Shown here: one piece after another, positions 5,415 through 64,000 of the stretch
Position numbering within the stretch: position 1 is the first letter of the stretch
Layout: every line of letters starts with the position of its first letter
Assembly: GCA_964016885.1 (NCBI GenBank)
Contig: OZ024742.1
Span: 152,892,001-152,956,000, forward strand
Source of the DNA: Eledone cirrhosa
Taxonomy: Eukaryota
DNA length: 64,000 nt
Reading direction: 5' to 3'
The notes under the pieces: model-generated
The model's database searches: none
Seen by the model: only the letters and a program-made list of their open reading frames with translations
What the model was told of the DNA's origin: nothing
Position numbers and translations under genes: made by a program

Positions 5415-6963
5415 ACCTACCTAAATACAAAAACAGAAATTTTCACCAGTTGCCCACACATGAAATCACACTTGCTTTCTAGCTTATATAAACTTAACTC
5501 ACTTTCAGATACTTATCCTCCATAAACTCTTATTCTCCACTTTCCTTAAATTATCCTCTTTACAGACTTCTCTTTCTGATTTTCTTTCATTTTTAACTTT
5601 ATTTTTAATTTTAATTTCATTTTTACTTCACATCCACCAGTATCCTCCCACCCCCTACTTTTCGATTCACTTCCCTAATATCTTCACATTCCACATTTTA
5701 CACCCCCATTTTCTTTCACTACCTGATACAACTTGTCACTTGCGTTTTCCACTCTAGATATATCATATTGTTTCGCAGCTGATTTTATATTTGTACTCAT
5801 TTATTCATATGGCTGATTTATAATCTTTATCTATGTGTCTGAGTGTGCTTATGCCTGTATACGTTCTGTATATGTATACGAACGCCTCCGTATGTGTGCG
5901 TGCGTACGTACGTATATATATGTGTGTGTATGTGTGTTTTTATATCTATGTTTTTTTTATATCTATGTTTTTTACATTCTTATTTTTACGTGTGTGTGTA
6001 TGCGGGTGAATGTATGTGTATGTGTATGTATATGTGTATGTATATGTGTATATATGTATATGTATGTATGGGTGTGTATGTATATGTGTATATATATATA
6101 GTCGCGTACGTACGTGTGATTAGATATACATGTGGCGATATATATATATATACGTGCCTCGTGTGTATGTACGCATGCATGCGCTTTTGTCTGTACGTAT
6201 TTGTGTGTATAAATATTTTTCTGTATATATATATGTGTATGTACGTGCGTACCTATGTTTGTTTTATTTTCTCTAGTGTTAATTGATTACTTTCTCTTTG
6301 ATTTAAACATTTTTTCATTCTAATATATTGTTTCATTTTTATACATATATCGATAATGACACTTCTTTTTATTACACTCCCTTCCCGCTTTATCTTCCCC
6401 ATATAAGTGACCGCGCGTGTGTGTGTGTTTATACGCGTGCTTTCATACTCGTATGTGTATTAAATACCTGTATCTGGATGCGTGTCTACTATATTATCAT
6501 ACAATTCCTTTTTCAACTCATATTATATACGTATTTGTGGTCACATATACACAAATATACTTTCCCTCATATATGTACTTCCGCACATATTTTCACCATA
6601 CACATGCATTTGTACATACACACATATGTACATTTGTGAGTGTATATACATACATATACACATACCCTAACTATATTTCCTCATATTGTTTTTATATTTT
6701 TTTAATATATCTCTTGCATTACTTTTATTTATATAATTTTTGCATTTATTGAGAGACATTCCAAATATTTCACTTTGATTTAAATTGCATTGTCCGACGA
6801 ACGAAGGAGGACATTTTTCGTATTCGTCTTATTCGGTAAACCTCTGGTAATGAGGTAATTATATTGTATTGTTTATTATAACTTAGATTTTGCTCTGGTA
6901 CTAGCATAGACCGCTCTTCACTCCTATGACTTTTTCAATTTTCAACGGAAACTTCAATACATA

Positions 6964-32662: not shown

Positions 32663-32718
<56 letters not shown>

Positions 32719-32720
<2 letters not shown>

Positions 32721-34343
32721 AAAGTTATATTTAAATTGTTGGGTTACAACTAGTAAATATTTATAACTGACATAAAAGCACTCAACAAGTATTTGGAGTA
32801 TATTTACGATATTAAATAAATGGAAACTATATTTATAAAACCATATTTATTTCATTATATATATTTCAGGGATATCATATTAAAAATATGTTATGCCTTC
32901 TTCAGACAAAATACAATATAGACAGTTTTATAGATAAATAGATTTGACATACCGTTCAACATCGACTTGTATTTGAAAAAGTTGATTTGGCAGTGAAAAA
33001 TTGTAAACAGAAAGAAAGAAAGAAAGAAAGGAGGAAAGAAAGAAAAAAAAGGAAAAAAAAGAAGAAAAAGAAGAAATGCATGCAACAAAATAGAGAGATG
33101 GAAAGATAGATAAAGAGAAGAACTTCATGTAAAGAAACAGAGAGAGATATATAGAGAGAGGAAATAGATAGAGATAGATATATATAGAGAAAAGTAGGTA
33201 GTTGAACGACGTATCAATGATACATTTATTTATTTATTTATTTATTTATTTAGCTCTAGTATTAATGTAAGGGAGATATATGTGGTTAGATATATGTTCG
33301 CTATAATAACCACAAGAATTCTTTTACAGATCCAAGCAAAAAATCTTCAACAGCACTATCAGGCGTACTCTGGCAACTTAGGCAAGATAACGTTAGATAT
33401 TCGACGGCTTGGAATATAGTCTCAAGAGGGATTCCTTTTAATTCATCCTCTGAGGCATGTGACCTCTGCGCGGAGGAGATATTCTTTATACTAAAATCTA
33501 AAAATTCCCTTAATCTACGGACAAATTTATTCAGTTGCTGCAAACATAGATTGAACTCAACTTTTAAATATAAATTTAAATTTAAAATGTAGTATATTTA
33601 GTTTGATTTGTAATTATTTGGGAAACTAGCCGATAAATCTTTCGATTTCTTCTTTTTATTCTTCTTTTTATTTTAATTTTTATTTTAAACATTCTTCATG
33701 AAAATTAGACTACCCTAAAAGTTGATGCTCCAAATATATCGAATAAACGTTACACTAGATAAACTTCTATATTAAATATAAGAACATATGTAGACCAAAT
33801 GGGCATCCTAAACTTTTGAAATGATTTCTGCTAGACGCGATTTGGTAAATAATTTTTAGCTTTATCTGTTTTCGACTCTGATGCTTATAATGAACTTGGC
33901 AATATATTGTCAATTCATTTTGAAGGGTTGATCTTTGTGGTCGATTTGCGTGGCATATTATGTTTTTATTTTTATTATTTTAATATTTTTTAATATTTTT
34001 AATATTTTCATTTTTAATATGTAATATTTTATTATTTTTTTAGTTTTCTATTTTATTTATTTGTTTATTATTATTATTATTATTATTATTATTGTTATTG
34101 TTATTCCTTGAATCTCAGTCATTGATGTTGGTTAACTGGAAAGTCCGTTGGATTGAATATCAAGCCACTACCTGCAACCTCAGATATTCAGGACGTATTG
34201 GAGGGTTCTTGCCGTTCCAAGCAAGCATGCCTTTTGAAGCCTTCCAAAAAGCGTGAAGGGGCCGATTTTCTTTAACCATCCCTGGAAACCTTTGGAGATA
34301 GTCCCCAGTGCGCCTATGACAATCGGGATCACTTTATTATTAA

Positions 34344-34386
<43 letters not shown>

Positions 34387-35322
34387 TTTTGTTTTTTTTC
34401 TGATATTTTTATTAATATATTGAAATCTGTTCTCTATTTCTGCTTGATAGATAATCATGTAGAGTAAAGACAAGAATAGTATTGTTAAAATTAATATAGA
34501 CTCTATATATATGTGTATATATACACATATATGTATACTTAAATTTTTATAGCACAATGAGAATGTTCTCCGTGTGAAATAGGGGTTTGCAGAGTTGATC
34601 ACGTAAATTCACATCGATGTTTGTAGTTATCGTATAAACATATGAATTTTTAAAACTAGACATAAGATCATTACTTTTCACACATTATAGATACGTGTCT
34701 CATTCAGGAATACTGATATTTACATTATAGTGCCTGGTTTTTATACGAACTAATATTTCTATATTAAAACATAGGGTTTTTAAATTCTGCCTCGCCTATG
34801 TCTGGTTACTTTTCATTTTTCTCTCTATATAACGGCTGGTTTCTTTCCTAACCACATATATCTCCCTTACATTAATACTAGAGCTAAATAAATAAATAAA
34901 TAAATGTATCATTGATACGTCGTTCAACTACCTACTTTTCTCTATATATATCTATCTCTATCTATTTCCTCTCTCTATATATCTCTCTGTTTCTTTACAT
35001 GAAGTTCTTCTCTTTATCTATCTTTCCATCTCTCTATTTTGTTGCATGCATTTCTTCTTTTTCTTCTTTTTCTTCGTTTTCTTTCTTTCTTTCCTCCTTT
35101 CTTTCTTTCTTTCTTTCTGTTTACAATTTTTCACTGCCAAATCAACTTTTTCAAATACAAGTCGATGTTGAACGGTATGTCAAATCTATTTATCTATAAA
35201 ACTGTCTATATTGTATTTTGTCTGAAGAAGGCATAACATATTGTTAATATGATATCCCTGAAATATATATAATGAAATAAATATGGTTTTATAAATATAG
35301 TTTCCATTTATTTAATATCGTA
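32719..35322 (+). mobile_element. 5'-truncated PLE with inverted 5' pLTR
   Basis: GIY-YIG C-terminus at ~33297-33591 (YNNHKNSF...CDLCAEE...SCCKHR); ~32805-33290 is the reverse complement of ~34847-35322; hammerheads at 32849-32912 (-) and 35215-35278 (+): ATTTTGT-CTGAAGA-AGG..CCT-GAAA-TATATA-TA-ATGAAAT. Confidence 0.88.
34106..34335 (-). mobile_element. 3' fragment of an R4/Dong-like RLE non-LTR retrotransposon
   Basis: VIPIVIGALGTISKG...LQKACLLGTARTLQYVL* C-terminus; (TAA)n on both sides. Confidence 0.8.
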
Positions 35323-35382
35323 TATATATATATATATATTAATTCAAAATATTAACAAAAATAGACATTCGTTGATCAAGTA

Positions 35383-35449
35383 TATTTTATTATACATATT
35401 TCAGAGGTACTGAGCTATCTTTAACAGTACGTCCTCATCAGATAAAATA
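35383..35449 (-). ncRNA. Type I hammerhead (separate family)
   Basis: Minus strand: TATTTTAT-CTGATGA-GGAcGTACTG..CAGTACcTCT-GAAA-TATGTA-TA-ATAAAATA. Confidence 0.8.
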
Positions 35450-47439: not shown

Positions 47440-47639
47440 NNNNNNNNNNNNNNNNNNNNNNNNNNNNNNNNNNNNNNNNNNNNNNNNNNNNNNNNNNNNN
47501 NNNNNNNNNNNNNNNNNNNNNNNNNNNNNNNNNNNNNNNNNNNNNNNNNNNNNNNNNNNNNNNNNNNNNNNNNNNNNNNNNNNNNNNNNNNNNNNNNNNN
47601 NNNNNNNNNNNNNNNNNNNNNNNNNNNNNNNNNNNNNNN
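47440..47639. other. Assembly gap (200 N)
   Basis: Run of N. Confidence 1.
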
Positions 47640-49993: not shown

Positions 49994-50407
49994 ATAGATA
50001 TATATATATTATATATATATATATTATATATATATAAACATATATATATTATATATATAAAGATATATATTATATATATATATATATATTATATATATAT
50101 AAATATATATATATTATATATATAAATATATATATTATATATATATAGATATATATATATATATTATATATATATTATATATATATATAGATATATATAT
50201 ATATTATATATATATATATTATATATATATATATTATATATATATATATTATATATATATATTATATATATATAGATATATATATATTATATATATATAT
50301 ATTATATATATATATAGATATAGATATATTATATATATATATATATATTATATAAATATAGATATATATATATTATATATATATAGATATATATATTATA
50401 TATATAT
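48530..50407. repeat. Degenerate (TA)n array
   Basis: Direct reading; similar arrays at 52358-53103 and 54066-54206. Confidence 0.97.
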
Positions 50408-50854
50408 GCAAAGTTTTATTTAAATTGTTGGGTTACAACGAGTAAATATTTATAACTGATATAAAAGCACTCAACAAGTATTTGGAGTATATTTACGATA
50501 TTAAATAAATGGAAATTATATTTATAAAACCATATTTATTTCATTATATATATTTCAGGGATATCATATTAAAAATATGTTATGCCTTCTTCAGACAAAA
50601 TACAATATAAACAGTCCTATAAATAGATATATTCGACATACCTTTCAACTTCGACTTGCATTTGAAAAGTTGATTTGGTAGTGAAAAATATTATGGACAG
50701 TTATAAAAAGAAAGAAAGAAAGAAAGAAAAACGAAAAAAAAGAAGAAATGCATGCAACTAAATAGAGAGAGATAGATATAGAGAGATAGATAGAGAGAAG
50801 AAATTCATGTAAAGAAACAGAGAGAGATATATAGAGAGAGGAAAAACACAGAGG

Positions 50855-50885
<31 letters not shown>

Positions 50886-52357
50886 CAGAGAGAGAGAGAG
50901 AGAATATATAGAGTGATAGATATAGATAGAGATAGAGAGAAAGAAAATAGGTAGTTGGGCATCATTTGAATGACGTATCAATGATATATTTATTTATTTA
51001 TTTATTTATTTAGCTCTAGTATTAATGTAGAGAGAGATATATGTGGTTAGGAGAGAAAACAGCCGTTACATAGAGAGTAAAGAAAAATATCCAGACATAA
51101 ACGAGGCAGATTTAAAACACTATGTTTCATCAATGTAAAAATATCAATTCGTATAAATCAGGCATTTAAATGTAAATATCAGTATTCATGAATGAGACAC
51201 GTATCAATAATGTGTGAAAAATAATGATCATATGTCTAGTTTAAAATTCCTAGGTTTATATCAGAGTTGAGATAAAATAGAAGGTTATCCCAGATTCGAT
51301 ACTATAGACATCCATGTGAATTTACGTGATCAGCTCTGCAAATTCCTATTTCACACGAAAACATTCTCATTGTGCTATAAAAATTCTAGTATACATATAT
51401 GTGTACATACACACAAATATATATAGAGTCTACATTAATTTTAACAATACTATTCTTGTCTTTACTCTACATGATTATCGTTCAAGCATGAATAGAGAAC
51501 AGATATCAATATATCAATAAAAATATCAGAAACAAAAACATAAACAAAAAAACAAAAAAATATTAAAGAGAAAAATATTAAAAATATTAAAAATAAAAAT
51601 AAAACATAGTATGCCCCGCAAATCAACTACAGAGATCAACCCTTCAAAGTTAATTGTCAATATATTGCCAAGTTCGTTATAAGCATCAGAATCAAAAGCA
51701 AACAAAACCAAAAATTATTTACCAAATCCTGTCTAGCAGAAAACATTCCAAAAGTTTAGGATACCCATTTGATCTACAGATGTTCTTATATTTAATATAG
51801 AAGTTTATCTAGTGTAAAATGTATTCGATATATTTGGAGCATCAGCTTTTAGGGTAGTTTAATTATTCATGAAGAATGTTTAAAATAAAAAAGAAATCGA
51901 AAGATTTATCGGCGGGTTTCATAAATAATTATAAATCAAACTAAATATACTACATTTTAAATTTATATTTATATTTAAAAGTTGAGTTCAATCTATGTCT
52001 GCAGCAACTGAATAAATTTGTCCGTAAATTAAGGGAATTTTTAGATTTTAGTATAAAAAATATTTCCTCCGCGCAGAGGTCACATGTCTCAGAGGATGAA
52101 TTAAAAGGAATCCCTCTTGAGACTATATTCCAAGCCGTCGAATATCCAACGTTATCATGCCTAAGGTGCCAGAGTAAGCCTGATAGCGCTGTTGAAGATG
52201 TTTTGCTTGTGGTTATTATAGCAAAGTTTAAATTCTGTCGAGGTGGAACCAACTGTTGGTTCCACCTCGACAGAATTTTTAATATGATATCCCTGAAATA
52301 TATATAATGAAATAAATATGGTTTTATAAATATAATTTCCATTTATTTAATATCGTA
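50408..52357 (-). mobile_element. 5'-truncated PLE of the 32719/54207 family with snap-back junction
   Basis: GIY-YIG C-terminus ~51950-52253 on minus; hammerhead 50538-50601 (-); short inverted pLTR end 52275-52357. Confidence 0.88.
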
Positions 52358-52489
52358 TTATATATATATATATATTTTATATATATAGATATATATATAT
52401 TATATATATAAAGATATATATATTATATATATATATATATTATATATAAAGATATATATATTATATATATATATATTATATATATATAG

Positions 52490-52547
<58 letters not shown>

Positions 52548-52905: not shown

Positions 52906-53036
52906 ATATATTATATATATAGATATATATATTATATATATATATATTATATATATATAGATATATATATTATATATATATATATTATATATATATTGAT
53001 TTATATATATTATATATATATATATTATATATATAG

Positions 53037-53075
<39 letters not shown>

Positions 53076-53107
53076 ATTATATATATATATATTATATATA
53101 TAATGAA

Positions 53108-53323
53108 GGCGTGTGGCTGACTGGTTAGAGAATTGGATTCGCAATCGTAAGGTTGTGAGTTCGATTCCTGGACCAGGCGATGCGTTATGTCCTTGAGCAA
53201 GACACTTTATTTCACGGTGCTCCTTCTACCTGGAGTTGCGACCGATAGATAGTATTAGCAATTGGAAAGACCAACGGAAACATTGTTCCCTCGGTCCGAT
53301 TTGACGAAAGTCGATCGTTCCTT

Positions 53324-53325
<2 letters not shown>
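53108..53325 (+). mobile_element. tRNA-derived SINE
   Basis: A box TGGCTGACTGG (53114), B box GAGTTCGATTCC (53157), central GTCCTTGAGCAAGACACTT domain typical of core-bearing SINEs. Confidence 0.85.
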
Positions 53326-53382
<57 letters not shown>

Positions 53383-53447
53383 ATATATATTATATATATA
53401 TATATATTATATATATATATATACATATATATTATATATATATATAT

Positions 53448-54064
53448 ATTCTCGCTAATTTATATTTGTATTAATCTCCAGAGTCTAGCTATTGAGCAGT
53501 TACTTTTATTGATTTTTTTCAGTTACTTATATTGACTGTTGAATGGCTCTGTTATATTTAACCATCCTGTCGAGAGCTTTAATTCGATTTGTGATATTTT
53601 GCATTCTCGCAATAATACACAACTGAATCATTCGCTTAATAGAGGTGTTACCTCCCTTGCTGAATCCCACGAGGGGTCAGTAATAGCTACACTATCTATA
53701 GCATATTGGAGCAAAACCCGTTGAAAACACGACTGCCTTGTTCATCATCTCACCAGAAGCCTAACATTCTTTATGTAGGCAGACAGTACCTGATTTGGAG
53801 TCGCAGAAACCAATACTGGATTTTACCATCAGTCCAGGGTCCGGGAAAGTATCAACACATATATTTTTATTGTTTGACCCGAATTACTTGGTCGTTTTGA
53901 TTTTGGCTGTGCGGATGATATGTTTAACCATCATCTCAGTGTGTTTGGCCCTTAACGTATGTTGTAGCTCTGATTCATATGATTCATCGAGCGCTTGCCA
54001 CACATATCGGACGTTGATTTTCGTTAATTCCTGAGCTGAAAACGATTCTCGCTAATTTATATTT
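53448..54064. mobile_element. 597-bp non-coding unit with 20-bp direct terminal redundancy, in (TA)n
   Basis: ATTCTCGCTAATTTATATTT at 53448 and 54045; collinear homology with the 615-bp unit at 61449-62769. Confidence 0.75.
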
Positions 54065-54159
54065 ATATTATATATATATATATATATTCTCTATATATAT
54101 ATATTATATATATATATATATATTATATATATATATATATTAAATATATATATATATAT

Positions 54160-54193
<34 letters not shown>

Positions 54194-55458
54194 ATATATA
54201 TTATATGCAAAAGTTTTATTTAAGATTGTTGGGTTACAACGAGTAAATATTTTATAACTGATATAAAAGCACTCAACAGTTTCTGGAGTAGGTTTACGAT
54301 ATTAAACAAATGGAAACTATATTTATATTTATAAAACCATATTTATTTCGTTATATATATTTCTTTGATATCATATTAAAAATATGGTATGCCTTCCTCA
54401 GACAAAATACAATACATAAGCTGTTTTATAAATAATTATTGACATACCTTATAATAATGCGACTTCCATTTAAAAAGTTGATTTGGTAGTGAAACTGTTA
54501 TGACAGTTATATAGAAAGAAAAACGAAGATGAGAAGAAGAAGATGAAGAGATGTATGTAAATAAAAAAAGAAGAAGATGAAGAGATGTATGTAAAGAAAA
54601 ACAACAGAGCGAGATAAAACTTTTGCATATATTTTGCTCCAATACCGTTGAGCGCTTTATATTATAACTGAAAAAATGGAATTCTTTAAGATCTCTTCTT
54701 CTCTAAAAGACATACCTCTACCTAGAAACAAGGACTTTATTAAACAACTAATAGATAAATCAGACTCCTTTATAAGGAGAATCAGGTGGCGTGCATTCCA
54801 CTTTGATAAATCTAAATCTAATGTAAACGAAAATGTCTCAGACCTAGACAGAGTCTTCAAATCTAAAAAAAATCCAGCCCCCAACAAACTTTTGAATGAT
54901 TTTGAAAACGATATCATTTCTATCATACAAGGAGTCAGATTCAAGAGAAACTTCAATGGCCAGGAATATCTGAAAAGCATTAAGGATAACATTGCGAGCT
55001 TAGAGAGAACAGAGAAGATCTTGGTGAAATCGGACAAAACCAACAACCTCTATGGAGTGGAAAAAGACATGTATAATGGCCTCATACTGAAAGAACTAAG
55101 GAAAAAGTACAAGGTAGCAGATAAGGCTGAACTTGAGAAAATGAATGTTGAGGCATCTTGTATAATGCATGAGTTGGAAATTGAGAACAAAACACAACCT
55201 TTCGTGCCTAGGAAACCCAAGATCAATATGAAAGATCACAAGAGAAATTTTGAAAATGACTTGCCAGTCAGGTTGATTGCACCATCAAAATCTGACCTGG
55301 GTAAACTTAGCAAGAACATTCTAGACAGAGTGATACAGCAAATTAAGGATTTGAATTGTTTACCTGGCTTGACCTTGTGGAAGGGAACTGGGGAGGTCAT
55401 TGAGTGGTTTAATGAAGTTAAATATAACAATAATAATAAATTTATTCAACTAGATATT

Positions 55459-58400
55459 GCCTGGTCGTTATGACTCTGCTGGCTTAGAGCCACAGAGAGG
55501 GCCAGTGGATGATGGATCAGCTGTCTCTGAGACAAATATAAAGAATGCAGTTTTGTCCTGCAGAAGAGCCATCAAAATTGGGCACTTTGAATGTGAGGAC
55601 TATTCGAACGCTGGAGAAGAGAGAGGAGTTGGGACATCTGTTCGAGGAGAGTGGTATACAGATACTTGCGATCCAAGAACACAGGATTCTACACGATGAG
55701 CCCGTGAGGAGTGTGATGATCGGGAGGAAGAGCCAGCTCATCACTACATCGGAAGTGAAGAACACAACAAATGCTGCAGTAGGAGGAGTGGGTTTTGTGT
55801 TCAGTGCAAAAACCAATCTGTTTGTGAGGGAAATAATGCCTATCTCCCTGCGAGTGTTGAGGGTGACCTTCAATGGAAACCCAATACTGACAGTCATCTC
55901 AGCCTATAGTCCAACCGAGGGGGACAGTAATGTGAATGCCGAGGAGTTCCATGAGGAGGTGTGTAGAGCTGTCAACACCACTCAGGCGCACAATATCCTG
56001 CTTGTTTTGGGGGACTTCAATGCACATCTGAGTAAGGAGGGCAGTGAAGATCCTTGCTGGTACTTCCATAACAACACCAACCGAAATGGAAGAATACTGA
56101 GAGACACCCTGCTGGAGGCGATCTTGATGGCGACCAACCTAAGGTTTAGGAAGAATCTGGGGAAGATGTGGACCTACATCTCAGATATGCACCTGTCCAA
56201 GTCCCAGATTGATTTCATTCTGGTGTGGAAAAAGTGGCGGAATAGTGTTCTGAACACGGAACCATACAGCTATTTCAGTACACTGGGTAGTGACCACCGG
56301 CTTGTTATGAGTGAGGTCCGCGTGAGCTTAAGAATGAGCAAGGCTCAGCCCCGGAGAACAATCTATGACTGGGGAGCTTTCAAGGAAGATGATAAGCTAC
56401 AGGAGAGGTTCACAGTGGAAGTGAGAAACAGGTTTAGTGCTCTGTGTGGAGAGTCAGAGGAGAGAGAGATTGGATGGACTGAGGAGAGTGTGACGAGGAG
56501 GTACGGGCACTTCACCAATGCAGTGGCGAAAGCAAGTGAAACCCTGGTGCCGAGGAAAAAGAACAAAGGGAAGCACGTCAGCTCTGCAAACCCAAAAGTG
56601 TGTGCAGCCAGAGAACACCTGAAAGCTGCCAGGGACCAATTCTATACTGATCCTACGGAGGAGAGGATGGAGACTGTGGAGGTGATGAGAGAAGAGCTCT
56701 GTACCGCTTACACGGAGGTCAGAGAGGAGGCACTGATAGAGAAGATCAGAAGTGTGGAGAGAGCGGTTGACAGATCTGGATGTAAGGAGAGGTGGATGAT
56801 CATCAACGAGATCACAGGGAGGAAGAAAAGGTGTTCGAGTCAGATCCAGGGAACGGGGCCCGAGGATAGGAAGAGGAAATGGCTAGACCATTTTAGGACC
56901 CTACTAGGAGAGCTACCCTCCACAGCCCGGAGCACTGGGGACATCAGGCGGCTGTTTGAGGAACTGGATGTTGAGACAGAGCCCTTCACCAGAGAGGAGC
57001 TTCAGAGAGCCAAGAAGAAGATCAAGGAGGGCAAGGATCATGGAAAAGATGGAGTGGCATCAGAGGTGATGAAGAGGTGTGATTTTGATGATATCATCCT
57101 GGGGTTCTGTAACGGGGCACTGGAGAAAGGAGTTGCCCCGAATCAGTGGAGGATCAGTAACATCGTCCCAGTGCCAAAGAAGGGAGATCTCTCTAACACC
57201 AACAACTGCCGGGGGATCTCACTGACGTCACTTGTGGCAAAGACCCTCAACAGGATGATTCTTAACAGGATCCAGCCTGAGATGGAGAAGAAGCTCAGGG
57301 ACAACCAGAACGGCTTCAGAGAGGGTAGATCAACCACCAGTCACATCCTGATGCTGAGCAGGATATTAGAGGGAGCTAGAGCAAAGTGCCTTCCTGCGGT
57401 CATGGTTTTCATTGACTTTAGGAAGGCCTTTGATTCTGTGGACCGTTACTGCCTGATGAAGATCTTACAGGCTTATGGAATCCCCAAGAGGATAGTGGAC
57501 CTGATATCACTGCTCTACACCAACACCAAAGCCCAAGTCATTACACCTGATGGGATGACAGAGTTCTTTGAGATACTGGCTGGAGTGCTCCAGGGAGATA
57601 CATTGGCTCCCTACCTTTTTATCAGCGTAGTGGACTATTGTATGCGCCTTGCACTGGAGAAACACCAGGACACTGGCTTTACTGTGGCACCGGCTCAGAG
57701 CAGGAGAGTTGGGGCGAAAAAGGTATCGGATGCTGAATTTGCCGACGACATAGTTTTGGTGACAAATACAGTGAAGGAGGCAGAGGATTTGGTGCGGGAG
57801 GTTGAGACTGTGTCGATGAGTGTGGGGCTGAGAATGAATGAGACTAAAACAAAATATCTGGTAGAGAATGTTGAGAAGCCAGAGGGGATCACTAATGTAG
57901 GCGGAAAGCCGCTGGAATTGGTTGAGGACTTCCTGTATTTGGGAGCAAAGATTGGGAATACGGAAGATGATGTGGTTGAGAGGAAGAGCAAGGCCTGGGC
58001 GGCGTGTCGCAGCTTGAGACCGGTGTGGAAGTCGGACCTTCTTAGAGACCTGAAAATCCGCCTCTTCATTGCTGTAGTGGAGTCTGTGCTGCTGTATGGG
58101 TCTGAGACTTGGACACTGACCAAGAGACTCACTCAGATGGTGGATGGGTGCTACACGAGAATGCTGAGGATGGCTCTGAACATTAATCAGTATACACTGA
58201 GGATGAAAAACTCAGAGCTGTATGGGAGCATCCCAAAAGTCAGCTCAAAAGTGACACAGAGGAGACTGAGGTTGGCTGGACATGCTCACCGACATCCAGA
58301 GTTGACATTGCACTCAGTGCTCCTTTGGGAGCCCCTACATGGACACACTAGAAGAGGAAGACCAATGTTAACATATGTTGATGCCCTAAGGACAGACACT

Positions 58401-58509
58401 GGTCTGTTGGAGATGCAGGATATGGCAGCGATAATGAGGGACAGAGACCGCTGGATAGAACTCGTCCATGGATCTCGAGAATTTTACCCGCCTTAGATAG
58501 ATAGATATT
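55459..58509 (+). mobile_element. RTE-like LINE inserted in the PLE RT, 8-bp TSD TAGATATT
   Basis: TAGATATT at 55451-55458 and 58502-58509; (TAGA)n tail directly after the stop codon. Confidence 0.93.
55545..58496 (+). CDS. LINE APE endonuclease + reverse transcriptase, 983-aa open frame
   Basis: GTLNVRT, IQEHR, GDFNAH, SDHR, RGISL, FIDFRKAFD, GVLQGDTLAP, FADD, YLG. The true N-terminus probably lies in frame 55457 (AIKIG|TLNVRT) via a 1-nt indel near 55580. Confidence 0.9.
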   Translation: MQFCPAEEPSKLGTLNVRTIRTLEKREELGHLFEESGIQILAIQEHRILHDEPVRSVMIGRKSQLITTSEVKNTTNAAVGGVGFVFSAKTNLFVREIMPISLRVLRVTFNGNPILTVISAYSPTEGDSNVNAEEFHEEVCRAVNTTQAHNILLVLGDFNAHLSKEGSEDPCWYFHNNTNRNGRILRDTLLEAILMATNLRFRKNLGKMWTYISDMHLSKSQIDFILVWKKWRNSVLNTEPYSYFSTLGSDHRLVMSEVRVSLRMSKAQPRRTIYDWGAFKEDDKLQERFTVEVRNRFSALCGESEEREIGWTEESVTRRYGHFTNAVAKASETLVPRKKNKGKHVSSANPKVCAAREHLKAARDQFYTDPTEERMETVEVMREELCTAYTEVREEALIEKIRSVERAVDRSGCKERWMIINEITGRKKRCSSQIQGTGPEDRKRKWLDHFRTLLGELPSTARSTGDIRRLFEELDVETEPFTREELQRAKKKIKEGKDHGKDGVASEVMKRCDFDDIILGFCNGALEKGVAPNQWRISNIVPVPKKGDLSNTNNCRGISLTSLVAKTLNRMILNRIQPEMEKKLRDNQNGFREGRSTTSHILMLSRILEGARAKCLPAVMVFIDFRKAFDSVDRYCLMKILQAYGIPKRIVDLISLLYTNTKAQVITPDGMTEFFEILAGVLQGDTLAPYLFISVVDYCMRLALEKHQDTGFTVAPAQSRRVGAKKVSDAEFADDIVLVTNTVKEAEDLVREVETVSMSVGLRMNETKTKYLVENVEKPEGITNVGGKPLELVEDFLYLGAKIGNTEDDVVERKSKAWAACRSLRPVWKSDLLRDLKIRLFIAVVESVLLYGSETWTLTKRLTQMVDGCYTRMLRMALNINQYTLRMKNSELYGSIPKVSSKVTQRRLRLAGHAHRHPELTLHSVLLWEPLHGHTRRGRPMLTYVDALRTDTGLLEMQDMAAIMRDRDRWIELVHGSREFYPP

Positions 58510-61448
58510 TCTAACTACTATTCATCCATTACCCCTAATCTACTTAATAAGGCACTAAATTACGCATTCAAGCATACAGACCTAACTAGCAATGAAATGC
58601 ACATTATATTATCGGCAAGGAAAACTTTGATAGAATTTAATAACCAACTATGGACTAGGGCAGACAGAGATAATAATGTTGACATTACTATAGGATCATC
58701 AGACACAGCTCAGGTAACGGACCTTGTGGGCCTATTTATAATTAATTCGCTGCATAGGAAAATACCCGGTGTTACCGGAGGTTTATATAGAGATGACATG
58801 CTTTTACTTATTGAAAATAATAACTCTGAACTAAATAAGAAAAGAAAACAAATTATACAATTTTTTAACTACCTTAATCTAAAAATAGAAATTGAGAATA
58901 ACCATAGAATAGTCAATTTCCTAGACGTAACATTTAATCTCAACACATGTCTTCACTATCCATTTCACAAGTTAAATGAAAATTTGAATTATGTCAATTT
59001 TAGCTCCAATCACCCAAGATCTGTCAAAAATACTATAGTGATCTCTGTTCAAAAACGTATCTCTAGAATCTCTTCCAATAAAAATATTTTTGACGAAAAA
59101 GCCCAGTATTATAATGAAGCTTTAGCTAGAGCAGGATATAATGATACAATTATGTACATCGATAATAGACAAACTAACCAAAATAACAACAATTTTAATT
59201 ACAGTAACAACTTTAACAACTATAATAGAAAGCACTACAATAATTTCAAAAACCAGAAAAGAAATAGAACTAGAAATATAATATGGTTTGCCCCCCCTTC
59301 TCACTAAACATTAAAACCCACATCGCTAAACTATTTTTTAATGCTCTTGACAAACGCTTCCCTATAACACATAAGTATCACTCAATTTTCAATAGACATA
59401 CTATAAAATTAATGTACTCGTCCACCAAAAATTTAGCACAAAATATTAATAGAATAAATAATAGGAATCTAAAACCTAGCCAAAATACCGAAAATAGCCT
59501 AAACAATATTCAAGTAAAACACTGTAACTGTAGAGATAGATCTAAATGTCCGCTAAATAACAATTGCTTAGTTAAAAATATAATATACAACTGTAATGTT
59601 AGAACTGATTTAAATTCTTTTAATTATGTTGGTTCCACCTCGACAGAATTTAAACTTCGCTATAATAATCACAAAAATTCTTTCACGGATCCAAATAAAA
59701 AAATCTTCAACATCGCTGTCAGGGTTACTCTGGCAACTTAAGCATGATAAAGTTGGATATTCGATGGTTTGGAATATAGTCTCAAAAGGGATTCCTTTTA
59801 ATTCCTCTTCTGAGACATGTGACCTCTGCGCAGAGGAGATATTCTTTATAATAAAATCTAAAAATTCCCTTAATTTACGAACCAATTTATTCAGCTGCTG
59901 CAGACATAGATTGAACTCAACTTTTAAATATAAATATGAATTTAAAATGTAGTATAAAATGTAGTATATTTACTTAAGATATTTAACTATTTATGAAACT
60001 TGGTGATAAATCTTTCGATTCCTTCAATTTTTTTAAAACCTTTCTGCATGAATATATAATTAATGAGATTAAATAAACTACCCTAAAATCGGCGTTGTTC
60101 CCAATCTTTTGAATAAATTTTTAAGCTGGATAAACTTCTATAATAAATATAAGAGCATTTGAAGAATAAGTTTTGAATGATTTCTGCTAAATAAGGCTTG
60201 GTGAACAATTTTGGTTTTGTTTGCTTTTGATTCTGATTTTATGTGACCGATATGCGTGGCATACTATGTTCTCTTGCGTCCCTAGATACTCTGTGGAGTG
60301 ACGAAGATATTCTTGGCGTTTTTAATTTTTAATATTGATATCTGTTGTCTACACTATGCTTGATCGATAATCATGCAAGTGAGGCTGGAATGTTATTTTA
60401 AATGTTAATGTATATCTTATATATTTTATATATTTTATGTCTATATATATGTATTTATGTATGTAAATGTATGTAGGGTGGAATCTTTTGTAACGCAATG
60501 AAGTTTTTCATGAAATATAAGAATCTGTGCAGCATATCACGTAGGTTCACATGTGTGTCTATATTTATCAACTTGAATTTGAGATAACCTTCTCTTTTCT
60601 CTTTTTCTTTTTTCACGAGAATGCATATATACTTATGTTTGAAGTTTTATCTCAGATTTTGCATATAGACCTAAGAATTTTTAAACTGAGCATGTGGTCA
60701 TTTTTTCACACATAATGGATATGTGTCTCATTCATGAATACTGATATTTACATTATAATACCTAATTCATAAAAATTGATAATTCAAATGGATGAGACAT
60801 AATATATTTTTAATATATTTTAAATATATCATCTTTCTTTCTTTTTCTCCTATACACTGGACGTGATTTATGTGTCGGCTAGTTTAACTGTATCCCTTCC
60901 CTCCTTAACCTCTCACATATACGATGATCATCTGTCCAAAAGCTCCCTACTATATTTGTTCACTTCCTCAATGTATTTCTCTCTCCCATATCTCCTTGTC
61001 TCTCTATCTCGCTCTGTTGTTTTTCTTTACATACATCTCTTCATCTTCTTCTTTTTTATTTACATACATCTCTTCATCTTCTTCTTCTCATCTTCGTTTT
61101 TCTTTCTATATAACTGTCATAACAGTTTCACTACCAAATCAACTTTTTAAATGGAAGTCGCATTATTATAAGGTATGTCAATAATTATTTATAAAACAGC
61201 TTATGTATTGTATTTTGTCTGAGGAAGGCATACCATATTTTTAATATGATATCAAAGAAATATATATAAAGAAATAAATATGGTTTTATAAATATAAATA
61301 TAGTTTCCATTTGTTTAATATCGTATATATATTATATATATATATATTATATATATATATATATATTATATATATATATATATAATATATTATATATATA
61401 TATTATATATATATATATATTATATATATATATATATTATATATATAT

Positions 61449-62769
61449 CTGAATTATTGAGCCCTCTGCCGCTCATATCGAATTTCGTTTTTCGTGAACT
61501 CGTGCGCCGATTTTTCGATACTCGATCTTTCTAATATATTTAGCTCTGGACATAGCTATCCACCAGTTAATTTTATTGCTCATTTTTTGTCGATTCTATT
61601 GAGTGATGAATAGCTTTTGTTTTATTTTAACATGTCTATTGAGCACTCTAATTCGATATGTGTATTTCCACATTCACTCGAATTGTTTTCGCGGATATAG
61701 GGGTCATCTCCCTTGTCTAATGCCATGTGCGTTTTTCACCGCTAGTTGACTCCTTTGCCGCCAGGATAAAACTCGTTGACAACGTAAACTCCGTTCCACT
61801 TATTCTAGTAGGCTTTTATATTTATATGTGAGCTGATAGAGTACTGTCTAAGGATTTACAGAAACCCATGAAGCTAGATTTAACACCTTTCTAGTGGGTC
61901 CGGGTATGATTTTACATTCATTTAAATTATTGACGTATTGTTTTATTGATATTTTTTATCTGTTTGGCCCGAATCTTCCTTTATCGATTTTAAATCGTAT
62001 GGTTGATTGTAGACTTGTTCTATATGTGACGGTATTTTAACGATAGTTATAGCTCTGATTCATCTGAATTATTGAGCCCTCTGCCGCTCATATCGAATTT
62101 CGTTTTTCGTGAACTCGTGCGCCGATTTTTCGATACTCGATCTTTCTAATATATTTAGCTCTGGACATAGCTATCCACCAGTTAATTTTATTGCTCATTT
62201 TTTGTCGATTCTATTGAGTGATGAATAGCTTTTGTTTTATTTTAACATGTCTATTGAGCACTCTAATTCGATATGTGTATTTCCACATTCACTCGAATTG
62301 TTTTCGCGGATATAGGGGTCATCTCCCTTGTCTAATGCCATGTGCGTTTTTCACCGCTAGTTGACTCCTTTGCCGCCAGGATAAAACTCGTTGACAACGT
62401 AAACTCCGTTCCACTTATTCTAGTAGGCTTTTATATTTATATGTGAGCTGATAGAGTACTGTCTAAGGATTTACAGAAACCCATGAAGCTAGATTTAACA
62501 CCTTTCTAGTGGGTCCGGGTATGATTTTACATTCATTTAAATTATTGACGTATTGTTTTATTGATATTTTTTATCTGTTTGGCCCGAATCTTCCTTTATC
62601 GATTTTAAATCGTATGGTTGATTGTAGACTTGTTCTATATGTGACGGTATTTTAACGATAGTTATAGCTCTGATTCATCTGAATTATTGAGCCCTCTGCC
62701 GCTCATATCGAATTTCGTTTTTCGTGAACTCGTGCGCCGATTTTTCGATACTCGATCTTTCTAATATAT
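61449..62769. repeat. Tandem array of a 615-bp unit (2 full + 91-bp partial)
   Basis: CTGAATTATTGAGCCC at 61449, 62064 and 62679; units look identical; (TA)n flanks. Confidence 0.95.
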
Positions 62770-62805
62770 ATTATATATATATATATATTATATATATATA
62801 TATGT

Positions 62806-62840
<35 letters not shown>

Positions 62841-62957
62841 AATATATTATATATATATATATATATTATATATATATATTATATATATATATATATATTA
62901 TATATATATATATATTATATATATATATATATATTATATATATATATATATTATATA

Positions 62958-64000
62958 ATGGACAAATTTGAACAGTGACAAAACAGAGAGGCAGTACAAC
63001 GAAAGTTTATTAATTTCACGCTCTGGAGAGTGGGGTGTTGGTGGGGGACGACGTTTAGGGCATAAGCCTTTCCTCGGGTGAGAAGTGTGTGGGAACAGAG
63101 TTCACAGGGTGTGTAGGGGAGTGGTGGAGAGAAATATAGCGAAAGGAAACGGTGCGAATGAAAAAATAAAAAATAAACATAAAAATAAAAATAAAGCATG
63201 ATCAAAATACAAGGAATGAGATAAATTTAAAGATAAAGGCATGATCAAAATAAACTGAAATTAAAAGGGGGGTAAACAGGTGGTGGAAGGGTGTGGGGTG
63301 TGTAGGGGTGGTGGCGGGTGGAGTGGGGAGAGGGAGACGGGGTGTCCGAGCGGGGAGGGCTGAAGGTGGTGTGTGTGTGCAGGTGTGCGTGTGTGTGTGT
63401 GTGTGTATGTGAAAGTAAGGTTTGGGGGAAGAACGGGGTTGCATGTTCAGGAAGAGGTGTGTGTGTGGGGGGGTCGGAGTGTATGTGCGTGTGTGGATAG
63501 AGGGGTGCGGGGAGAGGAATCGGGAGGCTGAGGGTGTAAATATGTGGTGGATAGCACGTGTGTGTGGGGTTTAAGCTTGTTGTGGGTGTAGGTGGCTTAT
63601 GGAGAAAAAACATTTTTGGGGTGTGTGTGTGGGTGAGTTATATAGGTGATTACGTAAGAGGATGGTTGAAAAGTTGGAAAATTCCGAAGATGTTTAGTGG
63701 ATTGGTTGTTGGTCAATTTCTGCGTGTGTGTATTCCATGAAGCGATGGTCGGTAGAGGAGAGATGTGGGGTGCGCGCGCAACAGGAAGTGGTCAGCAGTG
63801 GGAGTGCTGTGGTCTGTTTGTGCTGGGAGGTGGTCAGAGGGCATAGCAGCAGTCGGTGGAATGGTAAAGGGGCGAGGATGTGTAGGTGTGAAAGTTGGAG
63901 TGAGGAGGGTGTGTGTATTAGTAGGGGTGTTAGTGGGATGAGTGAGTGTGGAGCGAGGGTGTGGGTGGAGCGGGGAGAGAAGGGTGTGTGTGGTTCTATG
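62958..64000 (-). mobile_element. Decayed PLE 3' end with degenerate hammerhead
   Basis: Minus-strand remnant STPTADHF (GIY-YIG C-terminal-like) near 63800; CCGAGGA-AAGGC ttat GCCC-TAAA-CGTCG-TC at ~63045-63078. Confidence 0.5.

Follow-up and report, generated by a model that had tools for sequence, protein, structure and literature searches.

A retrozyme-like repeat family of Eledone cirrhosa with a predicted variant type I hammerhead and the insertion pattern of Penelope-like elements

The window analyzed here is a 64,000-nucleotide stretch of the Eledone cirrhosa genome (GCA_964016885.1, contig OZ024742.1, forward-strand positions 152,892,001 to 152,956,000), which holds two copies of a non-coding repeat family, both on the plus strand and embedded in (TA)n. 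The subfamily A copy (53448..54064, GC 0.39) consists of a 597-bp unit plus 20 bp, whereas the subfamily B copy (61447..62769, GC 0.36) comprises two 615-bp units plus 91-93 bp. A first-pass annotation had proposed a period of 597 for 53448-54064 and of 615 for 61449-62769; both are confirmed, with 20 of 20 repeated bases matching in the former and 706 of 706 identical in the latter, where the match reaches two bases further left, to 61447. The two copies are collinear over their whole length, as that annotation had also stated, with an alignment score of 426 compared to 205.7 ± 8.6 (maximum 235) in 200 shuffles, and they share a right-hand stop in (TA)n. The helices it named are present at the positions given for them, and its finding of no open reading frame (ORF) holds, as the longest frames lying wholly within the units have 62-89 codons from stop to stop. 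Tandem Repeats Finder is blind to periods of this size (>500).

Across the 3.0 Gb surveyed in 1,796 contigs, the family motif CAGAAACC-N20-45-GGTCCGGG has 5,715 matches, compared to four for the reversed control. Genome searches gave 74 matches for unit A (40 of 3,742 candidates scored) and 236 for unit B (33 of 535 candidates scored), the latter forming near-identical arrays on many contigs. These B-type arrays contain from 1.5 to more than 13 identical units with separate junctions, and the B copy of the window is ~100% identical to them, so that the earlier suggestion that its 615-bp tandem could be an assembly duplication falls away. Genome-wide, 750 separate B-type right ends are joined to (TA)n, which excludes an assembly artefact. 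Full units (n=14) are 572-624 nt long and 56-97% alike. The repeat family is real and old enough for many subfamilies, and subfamily B is very young. At locus L070 (1496-3072), two subfamilies that are 73% alike stand head to tail with only TATAT separating them.

In an alignment of 25 diverse copies, RCCYG-TTGAN(A/G)A is conserved ~80 nt before GAAA. The RCCYG strand pairs with CGGG(T) behind GUC to form stem I, and the strand following the core pairs with the strand preceding A-GAAA to form stem II, the letters of which differ between subfamilies. The first-pass annotation had reported a half-hammerhead with no CUGANGA partner and invoked an unrecognised ribozyme or route. Contrary to both statements, a covariant UUGANAA lies at 53721-53727, 61776-61782 and 62391-62397, in each case after a strand that pairs with the CGGG behind GUC, and a complete type I hammerhead of variant form is predicted within the unit. 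The CGGG/CCCG helix that had been named exists where it was placed, but it is an alternative pairing, the partner of CGGG in ribozyme stem I being located upstream.

In the A copy, the predicted type I hammerhead spans 53716..53845 (+). Its 5′ part is composed of the stem I 5′ strand (53716-53720), the core UUGAAAA (53721-53727) and an extended stem II (53728-53805), followed by GAAA (53806-53809), stem III up to GUC (53839-53841) and the stem I 3′ strand (53842-53845). The predicted cut (53841/53842, +) falls just before unit 395; here and below, A and B unit positions are coordinates within the repeated unit. Further downstream, an ACCCG (53877..53881, +) is an alternative partner of the post-cut strand and would block stem I. 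The B copy has two predicted hammerheads. The first (61771..61905, +) consists of stem I (61771-61775/61901-61905), the core UUGACAA (61776-61782), stem II with GUAAA/UUUAC, and GAAA (61861-61864), with a predicted cut at 61900/61901; the second (62386..62520, +) has its core at 62391-62397 and its predicted cut at 62515/62516.

We tabulated 38 distinct motif sites and aligned 29 of them, leaving out six coreless or poor sites, near-duplicates and incomplete ones; the core was out of reach in three sites and poor in another three because the copy is cut or deleted at that point. All 29 aligned sequences have the elements of the hammerhead core in order, namely UUGANAA/UUGANGA, GAAA and GUC. 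U4 and G5 are conserved in 29 of 29 and A6 and A9 in 28 of 29, and core positions 3/8 are UA in 23, UG in four and CA in two. The 5′ half of the hammerhead, which was absent from the search pattern, is 86-100% conserved, compared to a mean of 71% for the other upstream columns. Among 15 copies lying outside the pattern set used for model building or re-found by another anchor, TTGAN(A/G)A is present in 12, AGAAA in 14 and GTC in 12.

The pairing pattern is consistent with this structure. In the 29 sequences, 86.4% of cells are paired (stem I 94.5%, stem II 87.9%, stem III 97.3%), compared to 81.7% in shuffled alignments and 26-43% when the structure is slid. Double changes number 41 versus 17.7 in shuffles, a count inflated by the relatedness of the sequences, and the number of pairs with a double change (nine versus 7.7, reached by 142 of 500 shuffles) is not significant as a measure alone. 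An RNA model built from the aligned hammerheads gave 18 matches in a search of the window together with 25 loci chosen by an anchor outside the ribozyme. The 17 distinct copies aligned to the model, most of them obtained via that outside anchor, are 87.8% paired with 14 doubly changed pairs, a level reached in none of 500 shuffles, albeit on a fitted alignment. When isolated, the A and B motifs adopt the hammerhead as their minimum-energy fold. Three features set this form apart: A9 and G12 are separated by 75-82 nt, which make up an extended stem II; this stem has a mismatch at its base; and stem III is long. A U3-A8 core is a natural covariant that is active in vitro (PMC3088659); such cores occur in Penelope-like elements (PLEs), commonly so in those of Schistosoma, where an extra base also follows A9 (PMC4209133).

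The Rfam hammerhead models gave no match at the gathering score in the window and none at E values up to 10 in 53000-63000, and at both thresholds Rfam returned no ribozyme, only five weak and unrelated matches. We also considered hairpin, HDV-like and twister ribozymes by eye against consensus motifs, Rfam being the sole tool applied, and rejected them on misfit of the motif order. Two other candidates for the missing half, a CUGAUGA at alignment columns 91-97 and a GCUGAC just before stem II, are poorly conserved and have no stem I partner. RNAalifold applied to 25 whole or partial units yielded only 11 pairs because of gaps. All nine matches from a metagenome pattern scan are chance matches, the best scoring 10.6 bits compared to 88-134 for full-length members. 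In most subfamilies, the sequence after the predicted cut reads GG-GTAAG/GTATG/GTGAG (61903-61908 in the window, and homologous sites), which is lost in subfamily A; we take it to resemble a splice donor. PLE repeats are known to hold introns that adjoin their hammerheads.

The 5′ ends of family copies are variable, and those of subfamily A were compared with the predicted cut. Among the first 100 of 243 matches listed, 23 insertions have a TA-flanked start within unit 376-406. Twenty of these listed junctions are at unit 393-405, four of them exactly at 395, the first base after GUC, and the remaining three lie in the 17 bases before the cut (p 4e-5 if the junctions are independent). Extra untemplated letters occur in four of the nine junctions at 393-397, and two junctions at 393 are readable as 395 plus extra letters. 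Matches on the reverse strand number 39 in the cut window versus five in an equal upstream window, with the proviso that the anchors may fit differing copy numbers; a downstream window gave none, a weak control because its anchor fits just part of A. Nine of 29 distinct long A insertions start at unit 386-412, with lengths of 1.35-1.40 or 2.37 units. For the other subfamilies, 10 of 30 anchor matches start 5-26 nt after the cut, one of them being an internal TA expansion, and none starts in the 124 nt before it, these matches being partly dependent and their ends approximate. Moreover, the inverted arm of locus L161 comprises unit 395-513, exactly from the cut to the second fixed end described below (site 1). 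The pile-up of A 5′ ends at or just after the predicted GUC cut suggests cleaved RNA as template, and the junctions of subfamily A point to copying of a linear, cleaved RNA more than of a circular one.

The right end, in contrast to the left, is fixed. It lies at unit 20-28 in all 30 A loci fetched and at unit 91-94 in 19 of 20 B arrays, the remaining array extending past the fetched stretch. Inverted arms in head-to-head orientation occur in three of the 20 B arrays and always end at site 1, ~105-109 nt upstream of the main end (site 2); the inverted arm of L161 likewise ends at site 1, the only such end in subfamily A. In the A copy of the window, site 1 (~53960, placed by the L161 arm end) is followed by the hairpin GCTC..GAGC+GCTT at 53967-53996 (53949..53996 in all, +), and a helix TCTC/GAGA+GCTT enclosing ~93 nt (53475..53579, +) comes after site 2 in the repeated unit. 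In the B copy, site 1 (62660, the inverted-arm end) is followed by the hairpin GCTC..GAGC+CCTC (62651..62696, also 62036-62081, +), a helix GCTC/GAGC+ACTC (61543..61648, also 62158-62263, +) comes after site 2 in the repeated unit, and a “tail” of ~109 nt (62661..62769, +) runs from site 1 to the main fixed 3′ end. The family shares with PLEs a fixed 3′ end, 5′ truncation, partial tandems and an inverted 5′ arm with an optional tail (PMC8557442, PMC3846280), and in vitro the PLE tail corresponds to the sequence that separates two internal sites at which reverse transcription starts (PMC11167929). No target-site duplications were seen in six loci with non-TA left flanks, and they are unreadable where the ends sit in (TA)n. 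In animal non-LTR (long terminal repeat) retrozymes, such duplications are >4 bp when present, and LTR, primer-binding site and polypurine tract are lacking (PMC7229834; bioRxiv 2026.07.22.740005).

Both fixed ends lie 5-10 nt before a CTC/GAG helix motif. The motif after site 1 is present in 28 of 28 distinct sequences retrieved with the search pattern, and that after site 2 is a long-range helix, TCTC/GAGA in most sequences and GCTC/GAGC in the B group, a single compensatory event. In the PLE family of the window, RCTC..GAGY+GCTT follows within 5-10 nt after each of two fixed ends, and the same RCTC..GAGY helix motif recurs in a second PLE family, where it precedes the ORF, and in a third, where it follows the fixed end; for comparison, RCTC/GAGY+RCTY has 27 matches in 2.23 Mb of shuffled DNA. 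From this placement we infer that the CTC/GAG motif may bind the PLE enzyme. The start-site helix motif alone is shared between the family and the terminal repeats of autonomous PLEs among the PLE pieces in the loci examined. Two of 15 non-TA 5′ flanks examined (L101, L121) are PLE repeats joined without a TA spacer, and these apparent PLE-retrozyme chimeras are explained by template switching, although a deletion between neighbors could also account for them. The proposal of a non-autonomous, retrozyme-like element using PLE enzymes is supported by the fixed 3′ ends, 5′ truncation, tailed inverted arms, TA targeting and PLE chimeras. The third PLE family, seen in L121 (minus strand, ~800-1100), L149, L154 and L160, has a minimal hammerhead whose loop III is palindromic, as well as a separate fixed end with the start hairpin behind it, and forms the chimera with a B-like retrozyme in L121. 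A short TA-flanked repeat with a long hairpin and ACTC..GAGT+ACTT near its fixed end (L047 ~5760-5850; flanks of L101, L103, L122, L137 and L138) is probably a further PLE-dependent non-coding family.

Individual B arrays carry substitutions of their own. In five of 20 arrays (L044, L046, L048, L049 and L050), a substitution is present in every unit, or in every unit of one block, and absent from the other sampled arrays, and in the inverted insert L045 one variant is common to both arms. At unit position 117, non-A letters were found in 28 units at six places only among the ~750 B-type ends. The array-wide variants of L044, L046, L048 and L050 are mostly on adenosines 86, 104 and 117, with 117 changed to T, C or G in different arrays. 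Such near-private variants fit the repeated copying of one monomer and fit local expansion as well; they lend indirect support to a circular-RNA step in the copying of the family. A 645-nt contig (unit + 30) in one sequencing run was set aside, as an array and a circle give it alike.

We consider it very probable that the family is an animal non-LTR retrozyme with a variant type I hammerhead, likely cutting after GUC, and that it is likely copied into (TA)n by a PLE reverse transcriptase-endonuclease. Under this proposal, a more-than-unit copy would be transcribed and the hammerhead would cut the transcript, leaving RNA that starts at CGGG, part of which might be ligated into circles. The PLE protein would bind the CTC/GAG helices and start cDNA 5-10 nt upstream, primed by nicked (TA)n, with a start at site 2 yielding the main arm and one at site 1 the inverted arm. 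On linear cleaved RNA, the cDNA would stop at the cut end or jump across it, giving insertions of 0.4, 1.4 and 2.4 units, as are typical of A; where the template is a circle or an uncut multimer, synthesis would continue into the long arrays that characterize B.

Several observations weigh against this proposal. The G10.1-C11.1 pair of the hammerhead is lacking, the first position being A.A (20 of 29) or C.A (nine of 29), followed by G-C in 24 of 29; natural U.U mismatches are known at 10.1/11.1 (PMC7229834, PMC3088659). Subfamily A carries a second mismatch, and yet its 5′ edge is the sharpest. In stems I and III, variation affects one side or is absent, the changes in stem I being one-sided C/U; most double changes are therefore contributed by stem II and its extension. 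When whole units are folded, stem I has a probability of 0.00-0.03 and CGGG prefers the downstream ACCCG (0.3-0.7), with stem II of A lost as well; this predicted preference may reflect a switch or be the sign of a dead ribozyme. Even in isolated motifs the stem I probability is below 0.2 in nine of 29, and the z-scores of whole-unit folding are modest (-2.3 and -1.3). Only one of nine predicted Xenopus retrozymes cleaved in vitro (bioRxiv 2026.07.22.740005). As for subfamily B, junctions were found at 26 loci among the first 100 of 155 matches listed, of which 10 lie 6-22 nt before the cut, a weak edge, and the other 16 at +1 to +7, in most cases on a TAT shared with the target; none of 20 long B arrays starts ≤9 nt after the cut. 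Array-wide privacy is imperfect as well, since L048 has a second variant in three of its six units and 117T is found in two arrays. Finally, the PLE of the window carries a different, minimal hammerhead, and no autonomous parent with the present one was found among the PLE pieces of the loci examined, the genome not having been scanned whole with the RNA model.

Some of these points would be expected of a PLE-mobilized element whose hammerhead-shaped fold is inactive, the 5′ pile-up then having another source: a reverse transcriptase that stalls at the GC-rich three-way junction, transcription that starts at this place, or a protein nuclease that cuts there. The whole-unit prediction without stem I, the mismatches at the stem II base and the B-type ends that read through the cut site agree with it, as does an anole PLE that inserts in vitro with no need of hammerhead cleavage and with no reads ending at the cut (PMC11167929). 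We nevertheless regard it as improbable: across subfamilies that are 56-97% alike, the unpaired catalytic positions stand out as better conserved than the sequence around them; the edge coincides with the first base behind GUC, and four of the nine junctions at 393-397 carry extra untemplated letters; and the same edge recurs where the inverted arm of L161 has its inner end. Alternatively, a satellite could have started from single retroposed units and grown in place through unequal crossover, making a circular or multimeric template unnecessary. Local expansion also yields array-wide near-private variants, and local amplification has been proposed for retrozyme arrays by Li et al. (bioRxiv 2026.07.22.740005). 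This is harder to reconcile with arrays that are dispersed, ~100% identical between contigs and fixed at one end while ragged at the other, with the single variant in both arms of L045, and with lengths of 0.4, 1.4 and 2.4 units tied to the cut site; we hold it to be very unlikely. A DNA rolling-circle element (Helitron- or Replitron-like) or an assembly artefact is largely refuted and scarcely credible. Rolling-circle DNA transposons also produce arrays of head-to-tail units that are fixed at one end; against them speak covariation of the RNA type, in which many pairs are G-U, inverted arms that stand head to head and carry a tail, and PLE chimeras, and against the artefact the 750 separate right ends.

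Beyond the retrozyme assignment, a broader combination of claims seems to us conceivable, though with somewhat less than an even chance of being right as a whole. The copies would be a genomic record of in vivo hammerhead cleavage during PLE retrotransposition, and the CTC/GAG helix pair would act as a portable PLE start signal, fixing how long the tail is and enabling unrelated RNAs to hitchhike. The U3-A8 hammerhead with extended stem II would be active as a monomer, switchable and invisible to current models, such that “ribozyme-free” PLE-type elements may hide similar motifs, and the sister subfamilies would differ in using linear (A) or circular (B) templates.

Compared to known systems, the family most resembles animal non-LTR retrozymes (PMC7229834; bioRxiv 2026.07.22.740005), which are likewise non-coding head-to-tail repeats with GC <50% and one type I hammerhead per unit (predicted, in the family here), present in thousands of copies alongside co-occurring PLEs. 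It differs in unit length (570-625 nt, compared to 170-400 nt in PMC7229834 and 51-972 bp in vertebrates in bioRxiv 2026.07.22.740005), in its U3-A8 core, 75-82 nt extended stem II and long stable stem III in place of a 1-2 bp palindromic one, and in (TA)n targeting with two mapped start sites. The minimal hammerheads of PLEs, including the U3-A8 variant of Schistosoma Cercyon (PMC4209133), have in common with it the U3-A8 covariation, a 4-5 bp stem I, an extra nucleotide after A9 and a long stem II, and PLE terminal repeats form similar partial tandems with an inverted 5′ arm and tail (PMC8557442, PMC3846280). Unlike these repeats, the family lacks an ORF; it has a second extra A before G12 and a tail of ~105-109 nt rather than 30-40 nt, and its long stem III would allow a monomer to fold, which is also the case for PLE hammerheads of fungi and protists.

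The anole Poseidon PLE (PAc), studied in vitro (PMC11167929), also has two internal start sites downstream of its hammerhead, the spacing of which makes the tail, and an AT-rich target primed on both strands. Cleavage is dispensable there in vitro, and no reads end at the hammerhead cut, whereas the genomic 5′ ends of the present family pile up at the predicted cut; in addition, a helix motif adjoins each start site here, unlike in PAc as described. Non-autonomous Chlamys elements such as MRC1 (PMC8557442) are similarly non-coding PLE dependants with multicopy head-to-tail insertions in microsatellites. They resemble an autonomous family at the 3′ end and mostly lack hammerheads, whereas the present family shares just a short motif with PLEs.

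The hammerhead described here is not a new ribozyme class. In the parts of the literature covered, neither the family nor its form of hammerhead is described, and the same holds for 5′ ends that coincide with a hammerhead cut and for the start-site motif; the figures and supplements of PMC3088659, PMC4209133 and PMC8557442 may hold similar core variants, and Repbase, Dfam and subscription journals lay outside the search. The role of hammerheads in PLEs and the way in which retrozymes recruit PLE enzymes have been stated as open questions (PMC8557442, PMC11167929, bioRxiv 2026.07.22.740005). The present family is a young substrate with many copies, whose predicted cut site, two start sites and candidate enzyme-binding motif have been located to within a few bases, and each can therefore be mutated in the existing in vitro PLE assay. 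As Rfam missed a form with thousands of copies, surveys built on a short stem II and CUGANGA may undercount retrozymes.

Between the A and B copies lies a PLE (54207..61326, +) with a C-terminal GIY-YIG-type endonuclease domain preceded by a CNC..CPL..C linker; it is not part of the repeat and represents a candidate type of enzyme donor. It consists of an inverted arm (54207-54616), a start hairpin (54636-54657), a broken ORF (54676 to ~59950) and a 3′ repeat reaching 61326, with its minimal hammerhead at ~61214-61275. By description, its clade being assigned without a tree, it appears to be of the Neptune/Nematis type. A first look at this PLE family gave 53,608 candidates; of the 143 matches that were scored, 17 are situated in frames of at least 700 codons. 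Pfam found nothing on four PLE pieces, but relatives of ~700 aa have Pfam matches, one of them to GIY-YIG. A LINE (55460..58510, +, boundaries approximate) with a 984-codon frame (55542-58496) encoding endonuclease and reverse transcriptase is inserted in the PLE ORF. Other PLE pieces, related to this PLE, lie at 32663-35441 and 50292-52541, where inverted repeats accompany motifs that resemble minimal hammerheads. At 53105-53325, a short element embedded in (TA)n, which is also found next to several loci, for example L054, L128 and L143, shows tRNA-like A and B boxes by eye and is presumably a SINE; ARAGORN reported 0 tRNA genes, including for this element. An assembly gap of 200 N is located at 47440-47639, far from the A and B copies, and another hammerhead-like motif lies on the minus strand at 7441-7411.

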